Assembly: GCA_963812155.1 (NCBI GenBank)
Contig: CAWETW010000003.1
Coordinates: forward strand, 800,001 to 864,000
Origin: Vulcanimicrobiota bacterium
Lineage (GTDB): Bacteria; Vulcanimicrobiota; Vulcanimicrobiia; Vulcanimicrobiales; Vulcanimicrobiaceae
Direction: 5' to 3'
Length of the DNA: 64,000 bases
Shown: positions 35,630 to 56,581 of the stretch, in pieces
Position numbering within the stretch: the first letter of the stretch is position 1
How the letters are laid out: the number at the start of each line of letters is the position of its first letter
The notes under the pieces: generated by a model
The model's input: only the letters and a program-made list of their open reading frames with translations
The model's database searches: none
What the model was told of the DNA's origin: nothing
Translations under genes and position numbers: made by a program

Positions 35630-37216
35630 CTATCGGCGCTTCGGGGTAGGTTTCTTTCTCGCCGAAGGCTTGCGTGCGGCCTTCACGATTTTTGCGCTCT
35701 TTTTGGGCGCCGGCTTGGCCGGGCGCTTTTTCGCAGCGGGCTTCGCCGGCGCGCGCTTCGGCGCTGCGACTTTTTTCGCGGCCGGCTTTGCACGCGTCTG
35801 TTTCTTAGGTGCCGGCCGGGCGGGCGTTGCTTTCTTGGCTTTCGCGCGGACCGGCGCGGGCGCGGCTTTGACCGGCCGCCGAGGCTTGGCATCGGCCTTC
35901 GCGCTCTTGGGTGCGGGCTTCGCCGGCTTCGCGGGCGCCTTTGCCGGCTTTTTCTTCGCCTCGGCCGGCGCCGCGGCGCGCGCGGCTTTGGCTTTGCTGG
36001 ATGAGGTGGACGATTCCGTCGAACGCCGCGATCCCGTCTTTGCGGGAGCCGCGTCGGCGCGTTTTCCGGATCGCGCCGGTCCGCCGGTGCGTTTTGCGGC
36101 GGCGGCCTCGCGCGCGGCACGCGCGCTTTCACGGCGGGTCGGCGCGGGCTTGTCCGGCTGCTCGGGAAGCCCGAGTTCGGCGCGGCTCAATCCGGTGATG
36201 CTGCTGCCCGGCACGAACGTCTCGCGCGTGCGTTCCTGCGCTTCCAGATGCTCGCGCGTGGCGCGCAGTGCGACCCGCGCCAACCTCCCGCCGACCGGAA
36301 AGACGATTTCGTTGATCTTCGCGTCGTCGAGGAGCTTCAAGATGAGGTCGAACGCGTTGCCTTGATCCTTCGGACTGTGCGCGTCGGAGCCGACCGCGAT
36401 GCCGACGCCGAGCGCCTTGGCTTTGCGCGCCAGCCGGGCGTTCGCGTCGAGGTACTTCTTTTTCGCTTCGGCCGAGTTTTCGCGATAGAGAAAGCGCGTG
36501 TTGATTTCGACGGCGAGACCGCGCGCGTGACAGAGCGCGAGCAGGCGGTCTTCGTGCTCTTCGAGGCGCTTCTGCCCAGGCCAGCGCCCGAGATGGACCG
36601 GCGCGTAGAAGTGGCCGACGATGTGGGCCGGAAGCTTCTCCAAGTCGTCGAGCAACTTGGCCATGTAGAGTTCCCAGAGTTTGTCGGGCTCGATCGTTTC
36701 GTGAAGATGCGCGAACTCGGCGTTGTCGAACGCCCACGCCCAGTCCGCGCCCTTCTCGGGATGATCGATGGTTACGAAGTTCACCGAGCGGATCAGGCCG
36801 TCGGGCCGCATCGCTTCGACGATGTTTTGGGCGTCGGGACGCGCGCGCGGATCGTTGTCGACCTCGGCTCCTATCGAGAAGCGCATGCCGTGGCGCAATG
36901 CTTCGGAGACGGCCGAGGCGTGTGCGCCGTCGACGCCGGCCGTTTCGGCGGCGCCGAACACGTCGCCCGCGTGAGCGAGTTTGAGCGCCCGCCGCAGGGT
37001 GTTGACGGCGCCCGGATCTTCAAACGTGAGATAGTTGATGTGGTCGGCGACCATCAAAAAGCGTGGCGAGCTGCGCCGGCACGCGTGGTAGAACCATAGA
37101 AAAAGCATCCGCGCAGAATACGCGAGCGGACGTTCCTCGGCAAACGGCCGGTGCTCCCCTTTCGCGTGGCCGTGAACGTCGGGGATGGCCGAAACGCGCG
37201 GGTCGCTCAGGGACAC
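35630..37216 (-). CDS. PHP-domain (histidinol-phosphatase/PolX-PHP-like) protein with a long Lys/Ala/Pro-rich C-terminal tail
   Basis: Motifs DVHGH, ADH, GAEVD, GHF, EIN, GSDAH. The last ~170 aa are low-complexity PAKK/AKPA repeats. Confidence 0.8.
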   Translation of the reverse strand: MSLSDPRVSAIPDVHGHAKGEHRPFAEERPLAYSARMLFLWFYHACRRSSPRFLMVADHINYLTFEDPGAVNTLRRALKLAHAGDVFGAAETAGVDGAHASAVSEALRHGMRFSIGAEVDNDPRARPDAQNIVEAMRPDGLIRSVNFVTIDHPEKGADWAWAFDNAEFAHLHETIEPDKLWELYMAKLLDDLEKLPAHIVGHFYAPVHLGRWPGQKRLEEHEDRLLALCHARGLAVEINTRFLYRENSAEAKKKYLDANARLARKAKALGVGIAVGSDAHSPKDQGNAFDLILKLLDDAKINEIVFPVGGRLARVALRATREHLEAQERTRETFVPGSSITGLSRAELGLPEQPDKPAPTRRESARAAREAAAAKRTGGPARSGKRADAAPAKTGSRRSTESSTSSSKAKAARAAAPAEAKKKPAKAPAKPAKPAPKSAKADAKPRRPVKAAPAPVRAKAKKATPARPAPKKQTRAKPAAKKVAAPKRAPAKPAAKKRPAKPAPKKSAKIVKAARKPSARKKPTPKRR

Positions 37217-37286
37217 CCGCCTTTGTACGTCGCGCAGGAATGCATGAGGATCGCCACGCCGCTAAGGTTGGCGCATCCGGGGGACG

Positions 37287-38019
37287 TTACCCTCTGTAGC
37301 CTTCCATTTTGAGTAAGCGCGCCTTCATGTCGAGACCGTAGAAGTAGTTGTGCAGCGCGCCGCTCGAGTCGACGACGCGATGGCACGGAAAGAGCAGCGG
37401 AAGCGGATTGCGCGCCATGACCCTTCCGACGGCGCGGGCGGCGCGTGGATGCCCGATCTGCGCGGCCACCCAGGCGTAGGAACGCACCTCGCCCGGCGGA
37501 ATCTGCGCGGTCGCGCGCAAGGCGGCTTGCTCGAACGGCGTGAGATCGCTGATGTCGACCATCGCGTCCTCGACGGTCCACGTGCGGAAGAACCGCTCGA
37601 GCGTGTCTCGCAGCCAAGCGGGTGTTTCGCCGCCGGACGACCGGACGCCGCAAGCGCCGCTCGACCCGCTCGCGCACCGTTTCGAGCGACTCGCCCGTAT
37701 CGATGCCGATATATGCGATCCGGTGTTCTTTGAATCCGACGTAGACCCGGCCGATCGGCGTTTCCGCGGCGCATAAGAGGACGGGCGTCCGCTGGCGCAT
37801 GCGCAGGGATGCGAGATGCTCGACGACCTTCTTGGCGAGATCGCACGACGGCTCCGGACGCGGCAACGAGGAGAGGCAGTACGCGACGCCTTCGAACTCG
37901 TGATAGAGTCCTTGACAGGACGGACACGCGCGCAAATGGGTGTGCACGGTTTCTTTGAGCGACGCCGTCGTGGCGTCACGAATTTCGTCCCACATGGCTT
38001 CGACGTCACGACAGCGCAT
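37287..38019 (-). CDS. Zinc-finger anti-sigma (ZAS, zf-HC2-like) domain fused to O6-methylguanine-DNA methyltransferase; one extra base near 37634
   Basis: N-terminal C...HLRACPSC (HxxxCxxC); Ogt N-domain ETPIGRVYVG; C-domain TPFEQ..L..IP.GEV.SY..VA..IG.P.AARAVG..MARNP....PCHRV. Span is 733 nt = 244 codons + 1. Confidence 0.85.
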
Positions 38020-38677
38020 GCACGGGCCCTCCTTCGTTGGTGAATCGTCCGATTTGGGGACCGAGAATGCGCCGAAGAATCCGCACGGCGCGATGCACGT
38101 GAGACTTGACGGTCCCGATCGGCTGATGGAGAATCTCGGCGATCTCCGGGTGGCTTCGCCCTTCGATGAAGCGTAGCGTGGCGGCCGCGCGCAGGTGCAT
38201 GGGCAGCTGCATGAGCGCCTGTTCGACCAGCGCGACCTCGGCGTTGCGTTCCACGATCGCTTCGGGCTGCGGCGGCGCTTCGTTGGATTCGCGCAGCAAC
38301 GCGTCGGGATCGGCCAGCGCGTCGAGCGCGACGCTCGCCGGCCGCTTGCTGCGTAACCGGTTGCGCGTGACGTTCAAGGTGATCGTATAGAGCCACGGCT
38401 GAAGGCGCAGCTCGTCGCGTTGCTCCTGCGACATCTTTCCGAGCGCGCGATACGCGCGCACGAACGCGTCTTGGACGATCTCCTCGGCATCTTCGCGGTT
38501 GCCGGTCATGCGCAGCGCGAAACCGTACAGGCGCCGCTGATAGTCGTCGACGATTCCTTCGAACCCGTCGACGCCCGAAGCGGAGCCCGTCGGCAGCCGG
38601 ACGGTTGCGGCCTTTCCTTTCGGAACCGCTGATGGCACGTGAACTCCCCGTAGCAGCGGTGCCGCAAGTGCACTCAT
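38006..38677 (-). CDS. ECF-type RNA polymerase sigma factor
   Basis: Region 2 (YQRRLYGFALRMTGNREDAEEIVQDAFVRAY..WLYTI..N..RN) and region 4 (LP...RA...LRF.EG.S..EIA.IL..PIGTVKS.VHRA). Confidence 0.93.
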   Translation of the reverse strand: MSALAAPLLRGVHVPSAVPKGKAATVRLPTGSASGVDGFEGIVDDYQRRLYGFALRMTGNREDAEEIVQDAFVRAYRALGKMSQEQRDELRLQPWLYTITLNVTRNRLRSKRPASVALDALADPDALLRESNEAPPQPEAIVERNAEVALVEQALMQLPMHLRAAATLRFIEGRSHPEIAEILHQPIGTVKSHVHRAVRILRRILGPQIGRFTNEGGPVHALS

Positions 38678-38821
38678 ACAGTGACTCGGACCACTGCCGC
38701 CTGCCGCCAGGTTTCACGCGAGGACGGAAAAATCCTGAGCAGCGTAAAACATCGTGCGCGGGGGCGAGGCCGGGGTGGAGGGGCCCGACTCCTGAGGCAG
38801 ACTCCTAGAGGAGGACCGTTC

Positions 38822-39214
38822 ATGGGACTGCCGATCGAACCGACGGAAATCTCGTTCGACGCCTATACGATGTGCAGTTTTCTCCCCAATCTCGACTCCG
38901 CGCGCGCCATACCCCTCGTTCTCATCGGGTACCGTCAGAACGAGGACCCATGGTTCGTGTGGCTGGTGCCTGACGGCGGCGGCTTCAACGATGGGCTAAC
39001 CGACGATCCGTACTATGCGAAAGTGCTGCGCGATCCTCGCGCCTACTTTCGCAAAAAGCTCGCCAAATACGTCGAAGAAACCGGCTGCGTCAAGCGCGGC
39101 ATCGAAATGCTCGTCGACTGCCATCAGAATCACCTCGCGTTTACGCCGCTTACCGAGCTAAGCGAAACGCCGTTCCGCCACCCGCTGCACGTGGAGTTGG
39201 TGGAAGCGTTTTAG
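38822..39214 (+). CDS. Hypothetical protein
   Basis: Strong RBS gaggagga before ATG 38822; protein-like composition. Confidence 0.65.
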   Translation: MGLPIEPTEISFDAYTMCSFLPNLDSARAIPLVLIGYRQNEDPWFVWLVPDGGGFNDGLTDDPYYAKVLRDPRAYFRKKLAKYVEETGCVKRGIEMLVDCHQNHLAFTPLTELSETPFRHPLHVELVEAF

Positions 39215-53782: not shown

Positions 53783-55116
53783 AGCAGAAGCCGGCAACCT
53801 TCGCGGCCGGCGCGACCAACGAATAGTGGTAGCTTCCGGTGCGTTGCTGTTCGCGTGAGAATTCGCACGCGCGCAGCGCGTCGAGGATACTCGTATTGAA
53901 GCGCAGGTTGCGCACGCCGTCCGTGATGCGTCCGTTTTCGACCAGGAACGTGCCGTCACGCGTCATTCCGGTCACGATCGCGCGCTTGCGATCGACGGGC
54001 CGCACGTACCACAGCCGGGTGACGAGCAGCCCGCGCGTCGTTTCGGCGATGAGTTGCTCGAGCGGCTTTGAACCACCGGCGACGGCGAGGTTGCGGGGCT
54101 GGCGGACCGTACGAGTTGGGCGCCGGAAGCGCGTGGCCGGTGTTCGGACGGTCGAGTTTTCGCGCGTAGTAACTGTCGGTGACGATCGTAGCGCACGACG
54201 CCGTTTTCGACGAGCGTCAGACGCTGCGTCGGGCAGCCTTCGAAGTCGAACGGCATTCCGGGCGCAAGCGGATGCGCGTAGTCGTCGTGAGACGGTAACG
54301 TTCTCCGAAAAGTATGGACGATCGAGTCCGTCGCTGCAGAACGACGATCCGTCGTCGTACGACTGCGCCGAAAAGTGGTCGGACAGGTAGACGAGCATTT
54401 CGCCGAAGGCGGCCGGCTCGAGGATCACGGTCCATTCGCCCGGATCGACCGCGATCGGTCGCGGCGCTCGCGCGCGCCTTGTCCGCCGCAACGCGGGCGA
54501 CGCCGGATGCGTCGATACTTCGCCGCCGACGGCGTCGCGTAGGCTTCTCCGAATCCGGTCGAGTCGGCGCGCGCTCATCTTCACGTTCACCGATGCGTCG
54601 GTTCCGTCGAACGAGGCGAGTGCGCCCGACGTATTGGCGACGGTAATGCCGACGACGACGTCGCCGCGAACCCGGCCGACCAATACCCCGTACGTTCGGC
54701 TTCGCGAAAGATCGCTTCGCACATCGTCGCGCGCAAGCCGGCTCCGGCACGCGCGGTGGCTTCGTCGAAGGCTGCGTCGGGCGCCGGCGCAGGCACGCCT
54801 GAAGGAAGCGTTCCGCTGCAGCGGATCTCGCGGCGCGAAGCCGGCGAGCGCAGCGGCACGCGTGACGACGCCGAGCGAGCGCGTCGTCCTCGAGCGGTTG
54901 GTTTGTGCGACGCCCGTTCGACCGTCGACGATCGCGCGCACGGAGATTCCCGCGTCGGAAGATGCGACGTTTTGATTCGAGGTTTCGTGCGTGAAACGCG
55001 TCAGCGCGTTGTCGACCGTCGAGACGAGGACTTCGGTTTGATCCGCACTGCGACAACTCGAGCGCACGCCGCGCGACGCGTTCGCGATCGGCGGCCGTAA
55101 GAACGGCGTTATCCAT
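53760..55116 (-). CDS. PmbA/TldE-family protein, multiply frameshifted
   Basis: Motifs ALTRF...S.QN, PG.WTVILEP.A, PFDFEG.P, GLLVTRLWY, TGMTRDGTFLVENG spread over several frames. Confidence 0.8.
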
Positions 55117-56581
55117 CGTAGCCGACTCCGACGCTGACGTTGCGAAAGCGCGCCGGCGCCGACGCTTGCGTCGTTCGTCCGGTTTGCATCGGCTCGCCCT
55201 TCCCGCAGTTCGGCGTTCCCCATGCAAACCACGAGGCTTCGTCGGCAACCGCATCGCACGAGTTCCAAAACGCGGCGTCATGCCGGCGTAGGTCGGGTTC
55301 TTGAGCATGCGTCCGCGCTTGCCGTTCTTCACTTCCCACGCGATTTCGCAGCCGAACTGAAAGTTCAGCCGCCGGTCGTCGATCGACCACGAACGGTTGC
55401 TCTCCATGTAGATGCCGTCGCGGACGTCGTCGAAGAGATCTTCGAACGGAACGTTGCCCGGCAAGCAGACTCAGGTTGCACATTCGGATCATCGGCACGA
55501 ACTCCCAGCTCTGCGCGCGCACGCAGGCGTTGCTCTCGCGTCCGATCGCGCGGGCGGTGTCGTTGCTCATTTCGTATCCGGCGAGCACGCCGTCGCGCAC
55601 GATGTCGGAACGGCCGCAGCTGCGTGCCTTCGTCGTCGTAGCCGCAGGTCGCCATGCCGCCGGCGAGCGTGTTGTCGATGACGATCGTGACGGCGCCGGA
55701 TCCGTATTGCAGCTTGTTCGAGCTGCTCGATTTCGAGAAACGATCGTCCCGGAGAAGTTGGCTTCCCAGCCCATCACGCGATCGAGTTCGGCCGGATGAC
55801 CGCACGATTCGTGGATCTGCAGCGACATCTGCGAGCCGCCGAGGATGACGTCGAAGGTGCCGCTCGGGCACTGCGGCGCGCGCAGCAGCTGCGAGCGCCT
55901 CTTCGCCGATACGCGGCGCGCCGTCGAGCAGCGCCGCCGCTTCGACGATCTCCCAGCCGCCGCGATTGGTAGAGGCCGACGTCGCCCGGATACGAACGCG
56001 TCTGCACGTCGCCGTTCGCCGACGGCCATCGCTTCGAGGCCCGCGCCGGTTTGCAGAATCCGTTGCACGATGCGCGACCCGATCGTGCTGTAGAAATACT
56101 TATCGGTGCGCCACAGAGTCGATCCACGCGCGTCCGACGGCGATGTCGGGGGAGGCGTGCAGCCTGCGTTCGGCCTCGAGCAGCAGCGCGACGCGGTCGC
56201 CGAGCGGCACGTCTGCGGGATCGCGCTGCACCGGCGTGACGAAGCGGTCGACGTAGGCGTGCTGCGGTGCGCCTTCCGATACGCCGGCGCCCGACGGCAG
56301 CGCCCGCCCGCGCGAGCGATACGGCACGAGCGGCGGTGGCATCGAGACTCGTCGTCGCCGGCTTCCCGGCACGCGGCGAATCCCCAGGCACCGTCGACGA
56401 GCGCGCGAATGCCGAATCCGTCGCTCGTGGAGTCGGCGAGCGCGGCGACGACGCCGTTGCGCACTTCGATGCGTTCGGCGCGCGCGACCTCGAAACGAAC
56501 GTCGGCATACTGCGCGCCCTGCGCGACCGCGGTGTCGAGTGCGCGTGCCGCCGCGTGGTCGAAAGGTCCGTTCGATTCCAT
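55109..56581 (-). CDS. tldD: TldD-family metalloprotease, multiply frameshifted
   Basis: Motifs YADVR, GFGIRALVDGAWGFA, IHES.GH..ELDR, YDDEG, WSIDD.RLNFQF, NCGKGEP.Q in shifting frames. Confidence 0.82.
   Translation of the reverse strand: MESNGPFDHAAARALDTAVAQGAQYADVRFEVARAERIEVRNGVVAALADSTSDGFGIRALVDGAWGFAACREAGDDESRCHRRSCRIARAGGRCRRAPAYRKAHRSTPTSTASSRRCSAIPQTCRSATASRCCSRPNAGCTPPPTSPSDARGSTLWRTDKYFYSTIGSRIVQRILQTGAGLEAMAVGERRRADAFVSGRRRPLPIAAAGRSSKRRRCSTARRVSAKRRSQLLRAPQCPSGTFDVILGGSQMSLQIHESCGHPAELDRVMGWEANFSGTIVSRNRAARTSCNTDPAPSRSSSTTRSPAAWRPAATTTKARSCGRSDIVRDGVLAGYEMSNDTARAIGRESNACVRAQSWEFVPMIRMCNLSLLAGQRSVRRSLRRRPRRHLHGEQPFVVDRRPAAELSVRLRNRVGSEERQARTHAQEPDLRRHDAAFWNSCDAVADEASWFAWGTPNCGKGEPMQTGRTTQASAPARFRNVSVGVGYDG

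Follow-up and report, generated by a model that had tools for sequence, protein, structure and literature searches.

A zinc anti-sigma domain fused to an Ogt-type DNA methyltransferase next to an ECF sigma factor gene in Vulcanimicrobiota: a possible sigma-based response to alkylation

This study concerns two overlapping genes in a stretch of 64,000 nucleotides (nt) from the genome of a Vulcanimicrobiota bacterium (assembly GCA_963812155.1, contig CAWETW010000003.1, positions 800,001 to 864,000 of the forward strand). The whole of this stretch is referred to here as the window, and coordinates are counted from its first base. The first of the two genes encodes an extracytoplasmic function (ECF) sigma factor, and the second encodes a protein of 243 amino acids (aa) in which a zinc anti-sigma (ZAS) domain is followed by a complete alkyltransferase of the Ogt type. 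It is proposed, with moderate confidence, that the pair forms a two-gene switch, in which the soluble ZAS-Ogt protein acts as an anti-sigma factor and would free the sigma factor when its Ogt part becomes alkylated. The features of the pair are given below.

38677-38006, minus strand: ECF sigma factor gene, 223 aa (Pfam Sigma70_r2, E 6e-16; Sigma70_r4_2, E 5e-13)
38035-38028, minus strand: Shine-Dalgarno sequence GAAGGAGG of the ZAS-Ogt gene, 8 nt before its ATG and inside the 3' end of the sigma gene
37795..38019, minus strand: ZAS domain, fusion residues 1-75, with ligands C3, H28, C32 and C35 read from the translation
37638..37788, minus strand: Ogt N-terminal (ribonuclease-like) domain, as far as the assembly error, from the AlphaFold2 model and a profile match
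37637, no strand: one surplus base in the deposited assembly, from public contigs, the nearest genome and orthologs
37287..37636, minus strand: Ogt C-terminal domain with helix-turn-helix, arginine finger and PCHR motif (PF01035, TIGR00589)

The sigma factor has an N-terminal extension of about 35 aa ahead of region 2 and scores 97 bits against the NCBIfam model sigma70-ECF (cut-off 42.9), while none of the NCBIfam equivalog models was matched at its own cut-off. Its stop codon occupies 38008-38006 and the ATG of the fusion begins at 38019 on the minus strand, which gives an overlap of 14 nt. The fusion product starts MRCRDVE, bears the motif H28-L-R-A-C32-P-S-C35 and then runs in the same frame into ETPIGRVYVG; the codon of the PCHR acceptor cysteine lies at 37385-37383 and the stop codon at 37289-37287 (minus). 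No membrane helix was found in the intact fusion, its highest Kyte-Doolittle mean over 19 residues being 0.99. The first-pass annotation, made from the letters of the window, had described a sigma gene overlapping its neighbour by 14 nt with a ribosome-binding site, a product opening with a ZAS motif and lacking a transmembrane helix, and an in-frame passage from ZAS to the Ogt N-terminal domain followed, after one extra base, by a complete catalytic domain. Each of these points is borne out by the coordinates, the GAAGGAGG box, the translation and the hydropathy values. Together they support one ZAS-Ogt protein that is translationally coupled to the ECF sigma gene, and we infer that the two genes are co-transcribed.

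In the deposited assembly the Ogt C-terminal domain, with its ARAVG and PCHR motifs, lies in a different frame from the ZAS and Ogt N-terminal domains. The extra base, which the first-pass annotation had placed near 37634 and wished to see checked against reads, is that at 37637. Logan contigs of four public soil runs (X1, X2, X5 and X6) were compared with the window over 37200-38100. One letter is missing at 37637 in the contigs of X1, X2 and X5, that is, in 3/3 of the runs covering the site (X6 has no coverage there), and the X1 contig shows no further difference over 901 bases. X1 may be the sample from which the genome was assembled; it is the relevant witness, but not an independent one. 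Alignment with G001, the nearest genome (about 93% identical over the window), puts the surplus base at about 37637-37639, and the base is absent from all 101 orthologous loci, each of which has a single open reading frame (ORF). Since none of the three covering runs has this base, the frameshift is an artefact of assembly, and one protein of 243 aa is the true product. The window and G001 are separated by 86 indels whose length is not divisible by three, and database entries of the ZAS-Ogt family are frameshifted at many differing positions; assemblies of these GC-rich genomes thus often contain indel errors. A real pseudogene or programmed frameshift, which would join ZAS and the Ogt N-terminal domain to an out-of-frame tail of 145 aa, agrees with the deposited window, in which the frame reads through to a 270-aa ORF without the catalytic domain, but is scarcely credible and was ruled out by the public contigs and the intact orthologs, none of which is shifted here, and the breaks in database entries and the non-triplet indels against G001 speak the same way.

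Among the representatives of 50%-identity clusters, P0124, P0126, P0134, P0135, P0145, P0149, P0152, P0153 and P0159 are frameshifted or merged gene calls, and the merged calls of the family include a sigma/ZAS/Ogt read-through of 425 aa. Such entries, broken in the same way as the gene in the deposited assembly, conceal the architecture, and surveys based on domains under-count the fusion. Elsewhere in the window, the stretch 54100-56350 differs from its syntenic counterpart in G001 by about 24 inserted single bases within 2.2 kb, far denser than in other parts. It is probably a stretch of low assembly quality, and broken genes there are not to be taken as pseudogenes.

The fusion is strictly conserved among relatives. 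The N-terminal 125 aa, used as query against 41 related genomes, found a match in 28 of them; by family, leaving G000 aside, matches were present in 22/24 genomes of f1, 5/5 of f2 and 0/11 of f3. These counts include G022, which is flagged as unpublished, and become 27/40 genomes in all and 21/23 in f1 when it is left out; the other results given here do not depend on it. In the loci recovered by this search the fusion is an intact single ORF of 243-250 aa (14/14), as it is in eight further loci (8/8, 243-256 aa). A scan of one genome per species added 80 loci, mostly recorded under the names Eremiobacterota, Vulcanimicrobiota or genera of Baltobacteraceae, with a few records under other phylum labels; the relatives it brought up were all of the same phylum. 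At all 80 of these named loci the fusion is encoded by one ORF (242-255 aa), both PCHR and the zinc motif are present, and the gene directly upstream is a homolog of this sigma factor. The two genes overlap by 8-14 nt in 76 of the 80, and in the other four the protein alignment ended before the end of the sigma gene. Where the sigma start was set in the relatives' loci (21 distinct loci), the overlap is 14 nt in 19/20 and 11 nt in 1/20. It had been considered that orthologs might encode the ZAS and Ogt parts separately, or apart from the sigma gene; they do not, and the unit is kept in 101/101 relatives (L023 duplicates L011, so that the 101 loci represent 100 distinct sequences).

The zinc ligands C3, H28, C32 and C35 are invariant in the 22 aligned fusion sequences, and C48 and C51 are further cysteines that are common in this alignment. 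Equally invariant (22/22) are Y181, R195, N204, P211-C212-H213-R214 and E239 of the Ogt part. Mean column identity is 78% for the sigma factor versus 70% for the fusion, and sigma orthologs are 69-97% identical. When the N-terminal 125 aa were compared with 1.84 billion representatives, 60 matches were obtained, many of them frameshifted fragments of the same family. Candidates for related architectures in the protein atlas were two clusters, one from Chloroflexota (252 aa) and one from Methylomirabilota in which zf-HC2 is combined with Methyltransf_1N.

The assignment of the front part as a ZAS domain follows from its invariant ligands, from weak matches to solved anti-sigma domains and from the gene context, the Pfam match itself lying under its cut-off. 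The family profile matches RsiW (5wuq_C) over positions 8-75 with E 0.0018. The single fusion sequence matches chain 3hug_B with E 5e-4; this entry bears the title 'probable conserved membrane protein', and we take it to be the anti-sigma domain of M. tuberculosis RslA. Weaker matches of the N-terminal part among the 1.84 billion representatives are bona fide zf-HC2 proteins with strong scores, and PF13490 (zf-HC2) is precomputed for 2 of the 120 listed homologs.

A model of the complex of sigma factor and fusion, built with alignments of both chains, gives further support. It scored 0.79, which is 0.36 above the best control (0.43), a mark that is reached by 116/157 solved complexes and by 2/215 mismatched pairs. 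Three runs share at least 78% of their contacts, with a pLDDT of the partner of at least 86. In the predicted interface, residues 36-76 (region 2) and 148-213 (region 4) of the sigma factor face only residues 8-72 of the fusion. All confident contacts fall in the ZAS part, and the Ogt domains are left free. The model supports a classical class I arrangement, with ZAS lying between sigma regions 2 and 4, and with it the earlier suggestion that the ZAS domain would sequester the sigma factor encoded next to it.

The rear part of the fusion scores 102.2 bits against PF01035 (cut-off 27) and 90.9 bits against TIGR00589 (cut-off 46.4), and homolog P0138 matches PF02870 with E 2e-5. From position 80 onwards the family profile aligns with E. 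coli Ada-C (1sfe, E 5e-22) and with human AGT. In the AlphaFold2 model, residues 80-210 have a pLDDT of 84-92, and strands at 80-87, 90-97 and 100-106 are followed by a helix at 112-123. Over about 168 columns, Foldseek aligns the model with M. tuberculosis OGT, with E. coli Ada-C and with human AGT (E 5e-11 to 1e-10), at target TM-scores of 0.69-0.78, the top matches being M. tuberculosis OGT and E. coli Ada-C (0.73-0.78; 0.78 for Ada-C). In the same model the last anti-sigma helix spans 61-73, and a linker of about six residues leads from it to the Ogt N-terminal domain, whose first strand begins at 80. Residues Y181, R195, N204, H213 and E239, mapped by motif, presumably correspond to Y114, R128, N137, H146 and E172 of the human enzyme. 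Judged by its sequence, the segment 78-243 is a complete two-domain Ogt with all catalytic residues. Since the residues of base flipping and alkyl transfer are invariant, the transfer chemistry appears to be under selection in the fusion, unlike in alkyltransferase-like proteins from which the cysteine has disappeared.

Upstream of the sigma gene, alignment of the relatives reveals a footprint of the kind expected of an autoregulated operon.

38689..38716, minus strand: candidate autoregulatory ECF-type promoter TGAAACC-N18-GGTC, from the upstream alignment

The -35 box TGAAACC lies at 38716-38710 and the -10 box GGTC at 38692-38689 (minus). Both boxes are conserved in relatives, while the sequence of the 18-nt spacer varies. 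The -10 box ends 11 nt ahead of the sigma start codon and the sigma gene has no Shine-Dalgarno sequence, so that its mRNA is probably leaderless or nearly so. The strict pattern GAAAC-N17/18-GGTY was present in 52/78 species loci versus 0/78 for a stretch within the sigma gene that served as control. A relaxed form, TGAAAC[CT]-N15-18-[GT]GT[CT] at no more than 60 nt from the start codon, was present in 74/78 versus 0/78 in each of two controls. This putative promoter fits an autoregulated ECF operon. A scan for sigma-70 promoters and terminators was uninformative, with 6 terminator-like sites found versus 5.2 expected.

The group ECF122 was reportedly first defined in a paper by Huang et al. 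2015. In the relevant supplementary entries of Casas-Pastor et al. 2021 (PMC7826278), ECF122 and ECF203 are groups whose ECF sigma gene has a gene for a 6-O-methylguanine DNA methyltransferase (MGMT) at position +1, in ECF203 together with an Ada metal-binding domain. Both groups are described there as exclusively (100%) actinobacterial and as devoid of an anti-sigma factor, and a role in repair of DNA damage is proposed. The section on ECF122 in a 2022 review (PMC8999054) places the group under unknown mechanism. The pair described here likewise has an MGMT gene at +1 of the ECF sigma gene. It differs in its host, Eremiobacterota/Vulcanimicrobiota, and in the N-terminal ZAS domain of its MGMT. 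Furthermore, the published promoter of ECF122 s1-s3 (CTCAC, CGTCTAC) does not fit TGAAACC-N18-GGTC.

A translated search of a plasmid collection yielded two actinobacterial pairs, one on a chromosome-size Nonomuraea record and one on a Rubrobacter plasmid. In these the ECF sigma gene overlaps a gene for an MGMT of about 250-260 aa by 4 and 11 nt, respectively. Each of these proteins consists of a full MGMT preceded by a short helical N-terminus and followed by a C-terminal Ada_Zn_binding domain (PF02805, E 3e-10 and 4e-10), and no ZAS motif was found in either. Within the genome, this sigma factor and this MGMT are the reciprocal best matches of the actinobacterial pairs. The best genome match of the Nonomuraea sigma factor is the one described here (87.8 bits, the next being 72.4), which itself scores 87.4 bits against the Nonomuraea protein versus 73.9 against its best paralog. 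The actinobacterial MGMT parts score 113 bits against the fusion versus 73 for the genome's own Ogt. A signature, GEVR-x-Y-x-W-[IV]-A, is common to the fusion and the actinobacterial MGMTs and is lacking in the three other MGMT copies of the genome. Upstream of the actinobacterial sigma genes, near the start codon, stand TGCAACC-N17-GTTGT and TGAAACT-N16-TGTT. In the Nonomuraea record (L134, 2215-2290), four tandem units of about 19 nt (gggcctttcgcgtgagggc) were also observed just upstream of the sigma gene. On the basis of these sequence comparisons, the Eremiobacterota pair may be read as a variant of the actinobacterial module, with ZAS in front instead of an Ada methyl-acceptor domain behind. 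The Ada zinc domain and the same promoter type in the actinobacterial pairs tie the module to alkylation.

The fusion also invites comparison with the established ZAS anti-sigma factors. Like RsrA (with SigR), RsiW, RslA and ChrR, it has a soluble anti-sigma domain with a C/H-x(n)-H-x3-C-x2-C site and is encoded directly after an ECF sigma gene; and, as for cytoplasmic ZAS anti-sigma factors, its operon appears autoregulated and its predicted place is between sigma regions 2 and 4. The inputs of the known proteins are thiol oxidation, singlet oxygen or proteolysis. None of the four includes a DNA-repair enzyme, whereas here a suicide alkyltransferase would be the C-terminal sensor. The likeness to E. 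coli Ada is of another kind: a self-methylating repair protein, whose MGMT part is homologous to Ada-C, would sense the damage and switch on its own gene. Unlike in Ada, the switch would act by setting a sigma factor free and not by direct binding to a promoter. The activating methylation of Ada sits on a cysteine of its N-terminal zinc domain, not on the MGMT cysteine, and in the fusion no match to PF02805, PF12833 or PF00165 was found, that is, neither an N-Ada zinc domain nor an AraC-type helix-turn-helix.

The question of novelty, which the first-pass annotation had left undecided, can be answered in part. The pairing of an ECF sigma gene with an MGMT gene is already catalogued, as the supplementary entries of PMC7826278 attest, whereas a description of the ZAS-Ogt protein was not found in print. 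Beyond mentions of ECF122, our searches, which did not cover the original ECF122 description, found no published link between an anti-sigma domain and an alkyltransferase, and the word 'sigma' is absent from the review of the AGT family (PMC10779285). What appears to be new is the ZAS-Ogt fusion and the reading of the repair enzyme as an anti-sigma factor.

The way in which such a switch might operate can be outlined as follows. At rest, the ZAS domain would sit between sigma regions 2 and 4 and keep the sigma factor off RNA polymerase, with the Ogt part free to scan DNA. Each repair event would irreversibly alkylate Cys212, as is the habit of a suicide enzyme, and alkylation would loosen the fold and break the contact between N- and C-terminal domains, as in solved alkyltransferases. 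The Ogt N-terminal domain is only about six residues away from the last anti-sigma helix, and the alkylated fusion would be expected to lose its grip on the sigma factor or be degraded, so that one sigma factor would be freed for each enzyme consumed. The freed sigma factor would transcribe its own operon from the TGAAACC-N18-GGTC promoter. New fusion protein would replace the spent Ogt, and repression would return once unalkylated fusion is in excess. This would be, in effect, a replenishment loop, an Ada-like adaptive response made of sigma and anti-sigma parts.

We infer that alkylation would be the releasing signal and that a regulon may extend beyond the operon. The first of these ideas draws on the short link between the anti-sigma and Ogt N-terminal domains and on the known behaviour of alkyltransferases (AGTs): according to the pertinent section of PMC10779285, alkylation destabilises human AGT and S. 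solfataricus OGT, disrupts the contacts between their N- and C-terminal domains and leads to degradation. That destabilisation is known from stand-alone enzymes of other organisms, and it supplies the step that the fusion model needs. The actinobacterial forms, which keep an MGMT together with an Ada methyl-acceptor, argue that alkylation would be the signal, without favouring any one of the cysteines as the one that is read.

Several observations weigh against an alkylation-released switch. The match of the fusion to PF13490 reaches 19.4-20.2 bits (E 0.0007-0.001), which is under the cut-off of 22.2. The pass of the complex model may mirror a likeness to solved sigma/anti-sigma complexes, and a control in which the partner was kept and the sigma factor replaced still scored 0.43. 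In the AlphaFold2 monomer the ZAS part is poorly ordered (pLDDT 42-67), as might be expected if this domain folds when bound to its partner. A fusion of an AraC-type helix-turn-helix to an MGMT, encoded elsewhere in the genome, could drive a conventional Ada-type response. The search for a regulon was also discouraging. Scanned for GAAAC-N17/18-GGTY, the whole genome contains 87 matches, and a plausible ORF follows 28 of these; about 70 would be expected from our own rough, composition-based estimate, so that there is no enrichment, and neither alkA, alkB nor ogt emerged as a target. Six candidates of the scan were checked for conservation of the site in five relatives. The site before an Lhr-type helicase gene is conserved in four of the five, those before genes for a cysteine synthase and a ferritin/Dps-like protein in two of five each, and that before a MATE transporter gene in two of the four relatives with a match, while the sites before genes of 235 aa and 463 aa are conserved in none. 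Other candidates were sites for an AnmK-like gene and a 381-aa gene and one upstream of SecA. The helicase site is the only extra site that is deeply conserved, and its -10 flavour, GGGTTA, differs. Moreover, the genome has about 16 ECF-type region-4 matches, and with so many ECF-type sigma genes the extra sites, including that of the helicase, are not assignable to this sigma factor. The helicase site itself (G000:C3:1166480-1166519; loci L040-L043) reads GAAAC-N17-GGGTTA, lies 13 nt upstream of the gene and has a diverged spacer. Finally, the pattern C-x24-H-x3-C-x2-C, with cysteine as its first ligand, is found as well in thiol-sensing ZAS proteins such as RsrA.

This last point leads to the alternative that survives best, although we consider it unlikely. 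The fusion may be a thiol switch similar to RsrA, in which the zinc site of the ZAS domain is the sole sensor: oxidants or soft electrophiles would attack its thiolates, and with the loss of zinc the sigma factor would be let go. Ogt would then be cargo, fused for co-expression or to be held close to the sigma factor, and it would not matter whether Ogt itself is alkylated. The invariant C3, 24 residues before H28-x3-C-x2-C, and the common C48 and C51 are in keeping with such a mechanism, as are the similar candidate promoters before the cysteine synthase and ferritin/Dps-like genes, which are typical members of thiol-stress regulons. However, these two sites have GGTTA as their -10 box and are conserved within the genus but not beyond it. 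A thiol switch would also leave unexplained why the ZAS domain is joined, through a linker of some six residues, to a catalytically intact Ogt at every one of the 101 loci, and why the actinobacterial pairs keep the MGMT and have the ZAS domain swapped for an Ada methyl-acceptor zinc domain.

It is distinctly improbable, in our estimation, that the zinc thiolates of the ZAS domain are themselves methylated in the manner of N-Ada, by SN2 agents or by methylphosphotriesters of DNA to which the Ogt domain would tether them, and that this, and not alkylation of Cys212, frees the sigma factor. The true Ada_Zn_binding domain that forms a second zinc module in the two actinobacterial MGMTs suggests an ancestral zinc-thiolate acceptor, and the invariance of the ZAS ligands would be accounted for. 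Against this, the ZAS fold is unrelated to that of N-Ada, we know of no ZAS domain that accepts methyl groups from DNA, the fusion lacks a match to PF02805, and in the complex model the surroundings of the zinc site abut the sigma factor.

There might, lastly, be no alkylation input at all, the fusion being an ordinary anti-sigma factor that is released by proteolysis, by partner switching or through the level of transcription, with Ogt as a product of the operon. The failure to find a regulon of repair genes and the greater conservation of the sigma factor than of its partner both favour this explanation, which we nevertheless regard as very doubtful. It is opposed by the strict conservation of the fusion with every residue of alkyl transfer kept, and by the occurrence of the same module with Ada zinc domains in Actinomycetota, while no gene for an anti-anti-sigma factor or a protease is kept beside the pair in the loci examined.

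If alkylation does release the sigma factor, the sensor would be a suicide DNA-repair enzyme, a type of input that is new beside the redox-active zinc sites, proteolysis and partner switching on which anti-sigma factors usually rely. Such an input would count, with one sigma factor freed for one lesion repaired. Such a switch would also show how a widespread, hard-to-culture soil phylum may meet environmental methylating agents without a classical Ada. More tentatively, and as something possible rather than probable, sigma-coupled MGMTs in at least two phyla, fronted by ZAS in Vulcanimicrobiota and tailed by an Ada zinc domain in Actinomycetota, could be one module in which the repair enzyme is itself the anti-sigma factor and gives a stoichiometric readout. 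The adaptive response to alkylation would then exist in a second form, one based on a sigma factor. This would explain the apparent lack of an anti-sigma factor in ECF122 and ECF203 and provide a testable mechanism for both.

The genome contains three further genes with an MGMT domain, namely a stand-alone Ogt, the AraC-type helix-turn-helix/MGMT fusion and a copy with a PAHR motif. As there is a separate stand-alone Ogt, the fused copy is not the sole repair enzyme. The AraC-type fusion (L029; G000:C2, ORF at 1450-2340 of the locus, minus) has a full MGMT, and no Ada zinc domain was detected in it. In the third gene (L031; G000:C4:25491-26033) the acceptor motif is PAHR, with Ala in place of Cys. 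From its sequence this copy looks like an alkyltransferase-like protein, but with Ala instead of the usual Trp.

The only conserved neighbours of the sigma and fusion genes are a small divergent gene of no known family and a phosphoesterase-like gene. The former, at 38819-39214 on the plus strand, encodes about 131 aa, is divergent from the sigma promoter region and keeps its position in the relatives examined; its product had no match in Pfam or NCBIfam. The latter lies downstream of the fusion.

35630..37216, minus strand: PHP/HisJ-like phosphoesterase gene with a long Lys/Ala/Pro-rich C-terminal tail

The product of this gene matches PHP with E 8e-4 and the HisJ family with E 8e-12, both under their cut-offs. 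Each of the first 14 loci has a homolog, as do 7 of the 8 further loci and 73 of the 80 named ones, and the gene may belong to the same operon as the fusion. Its tail of about 180 aa is reminiscent of the DNA-binding tails of histone-H1-like proteins.

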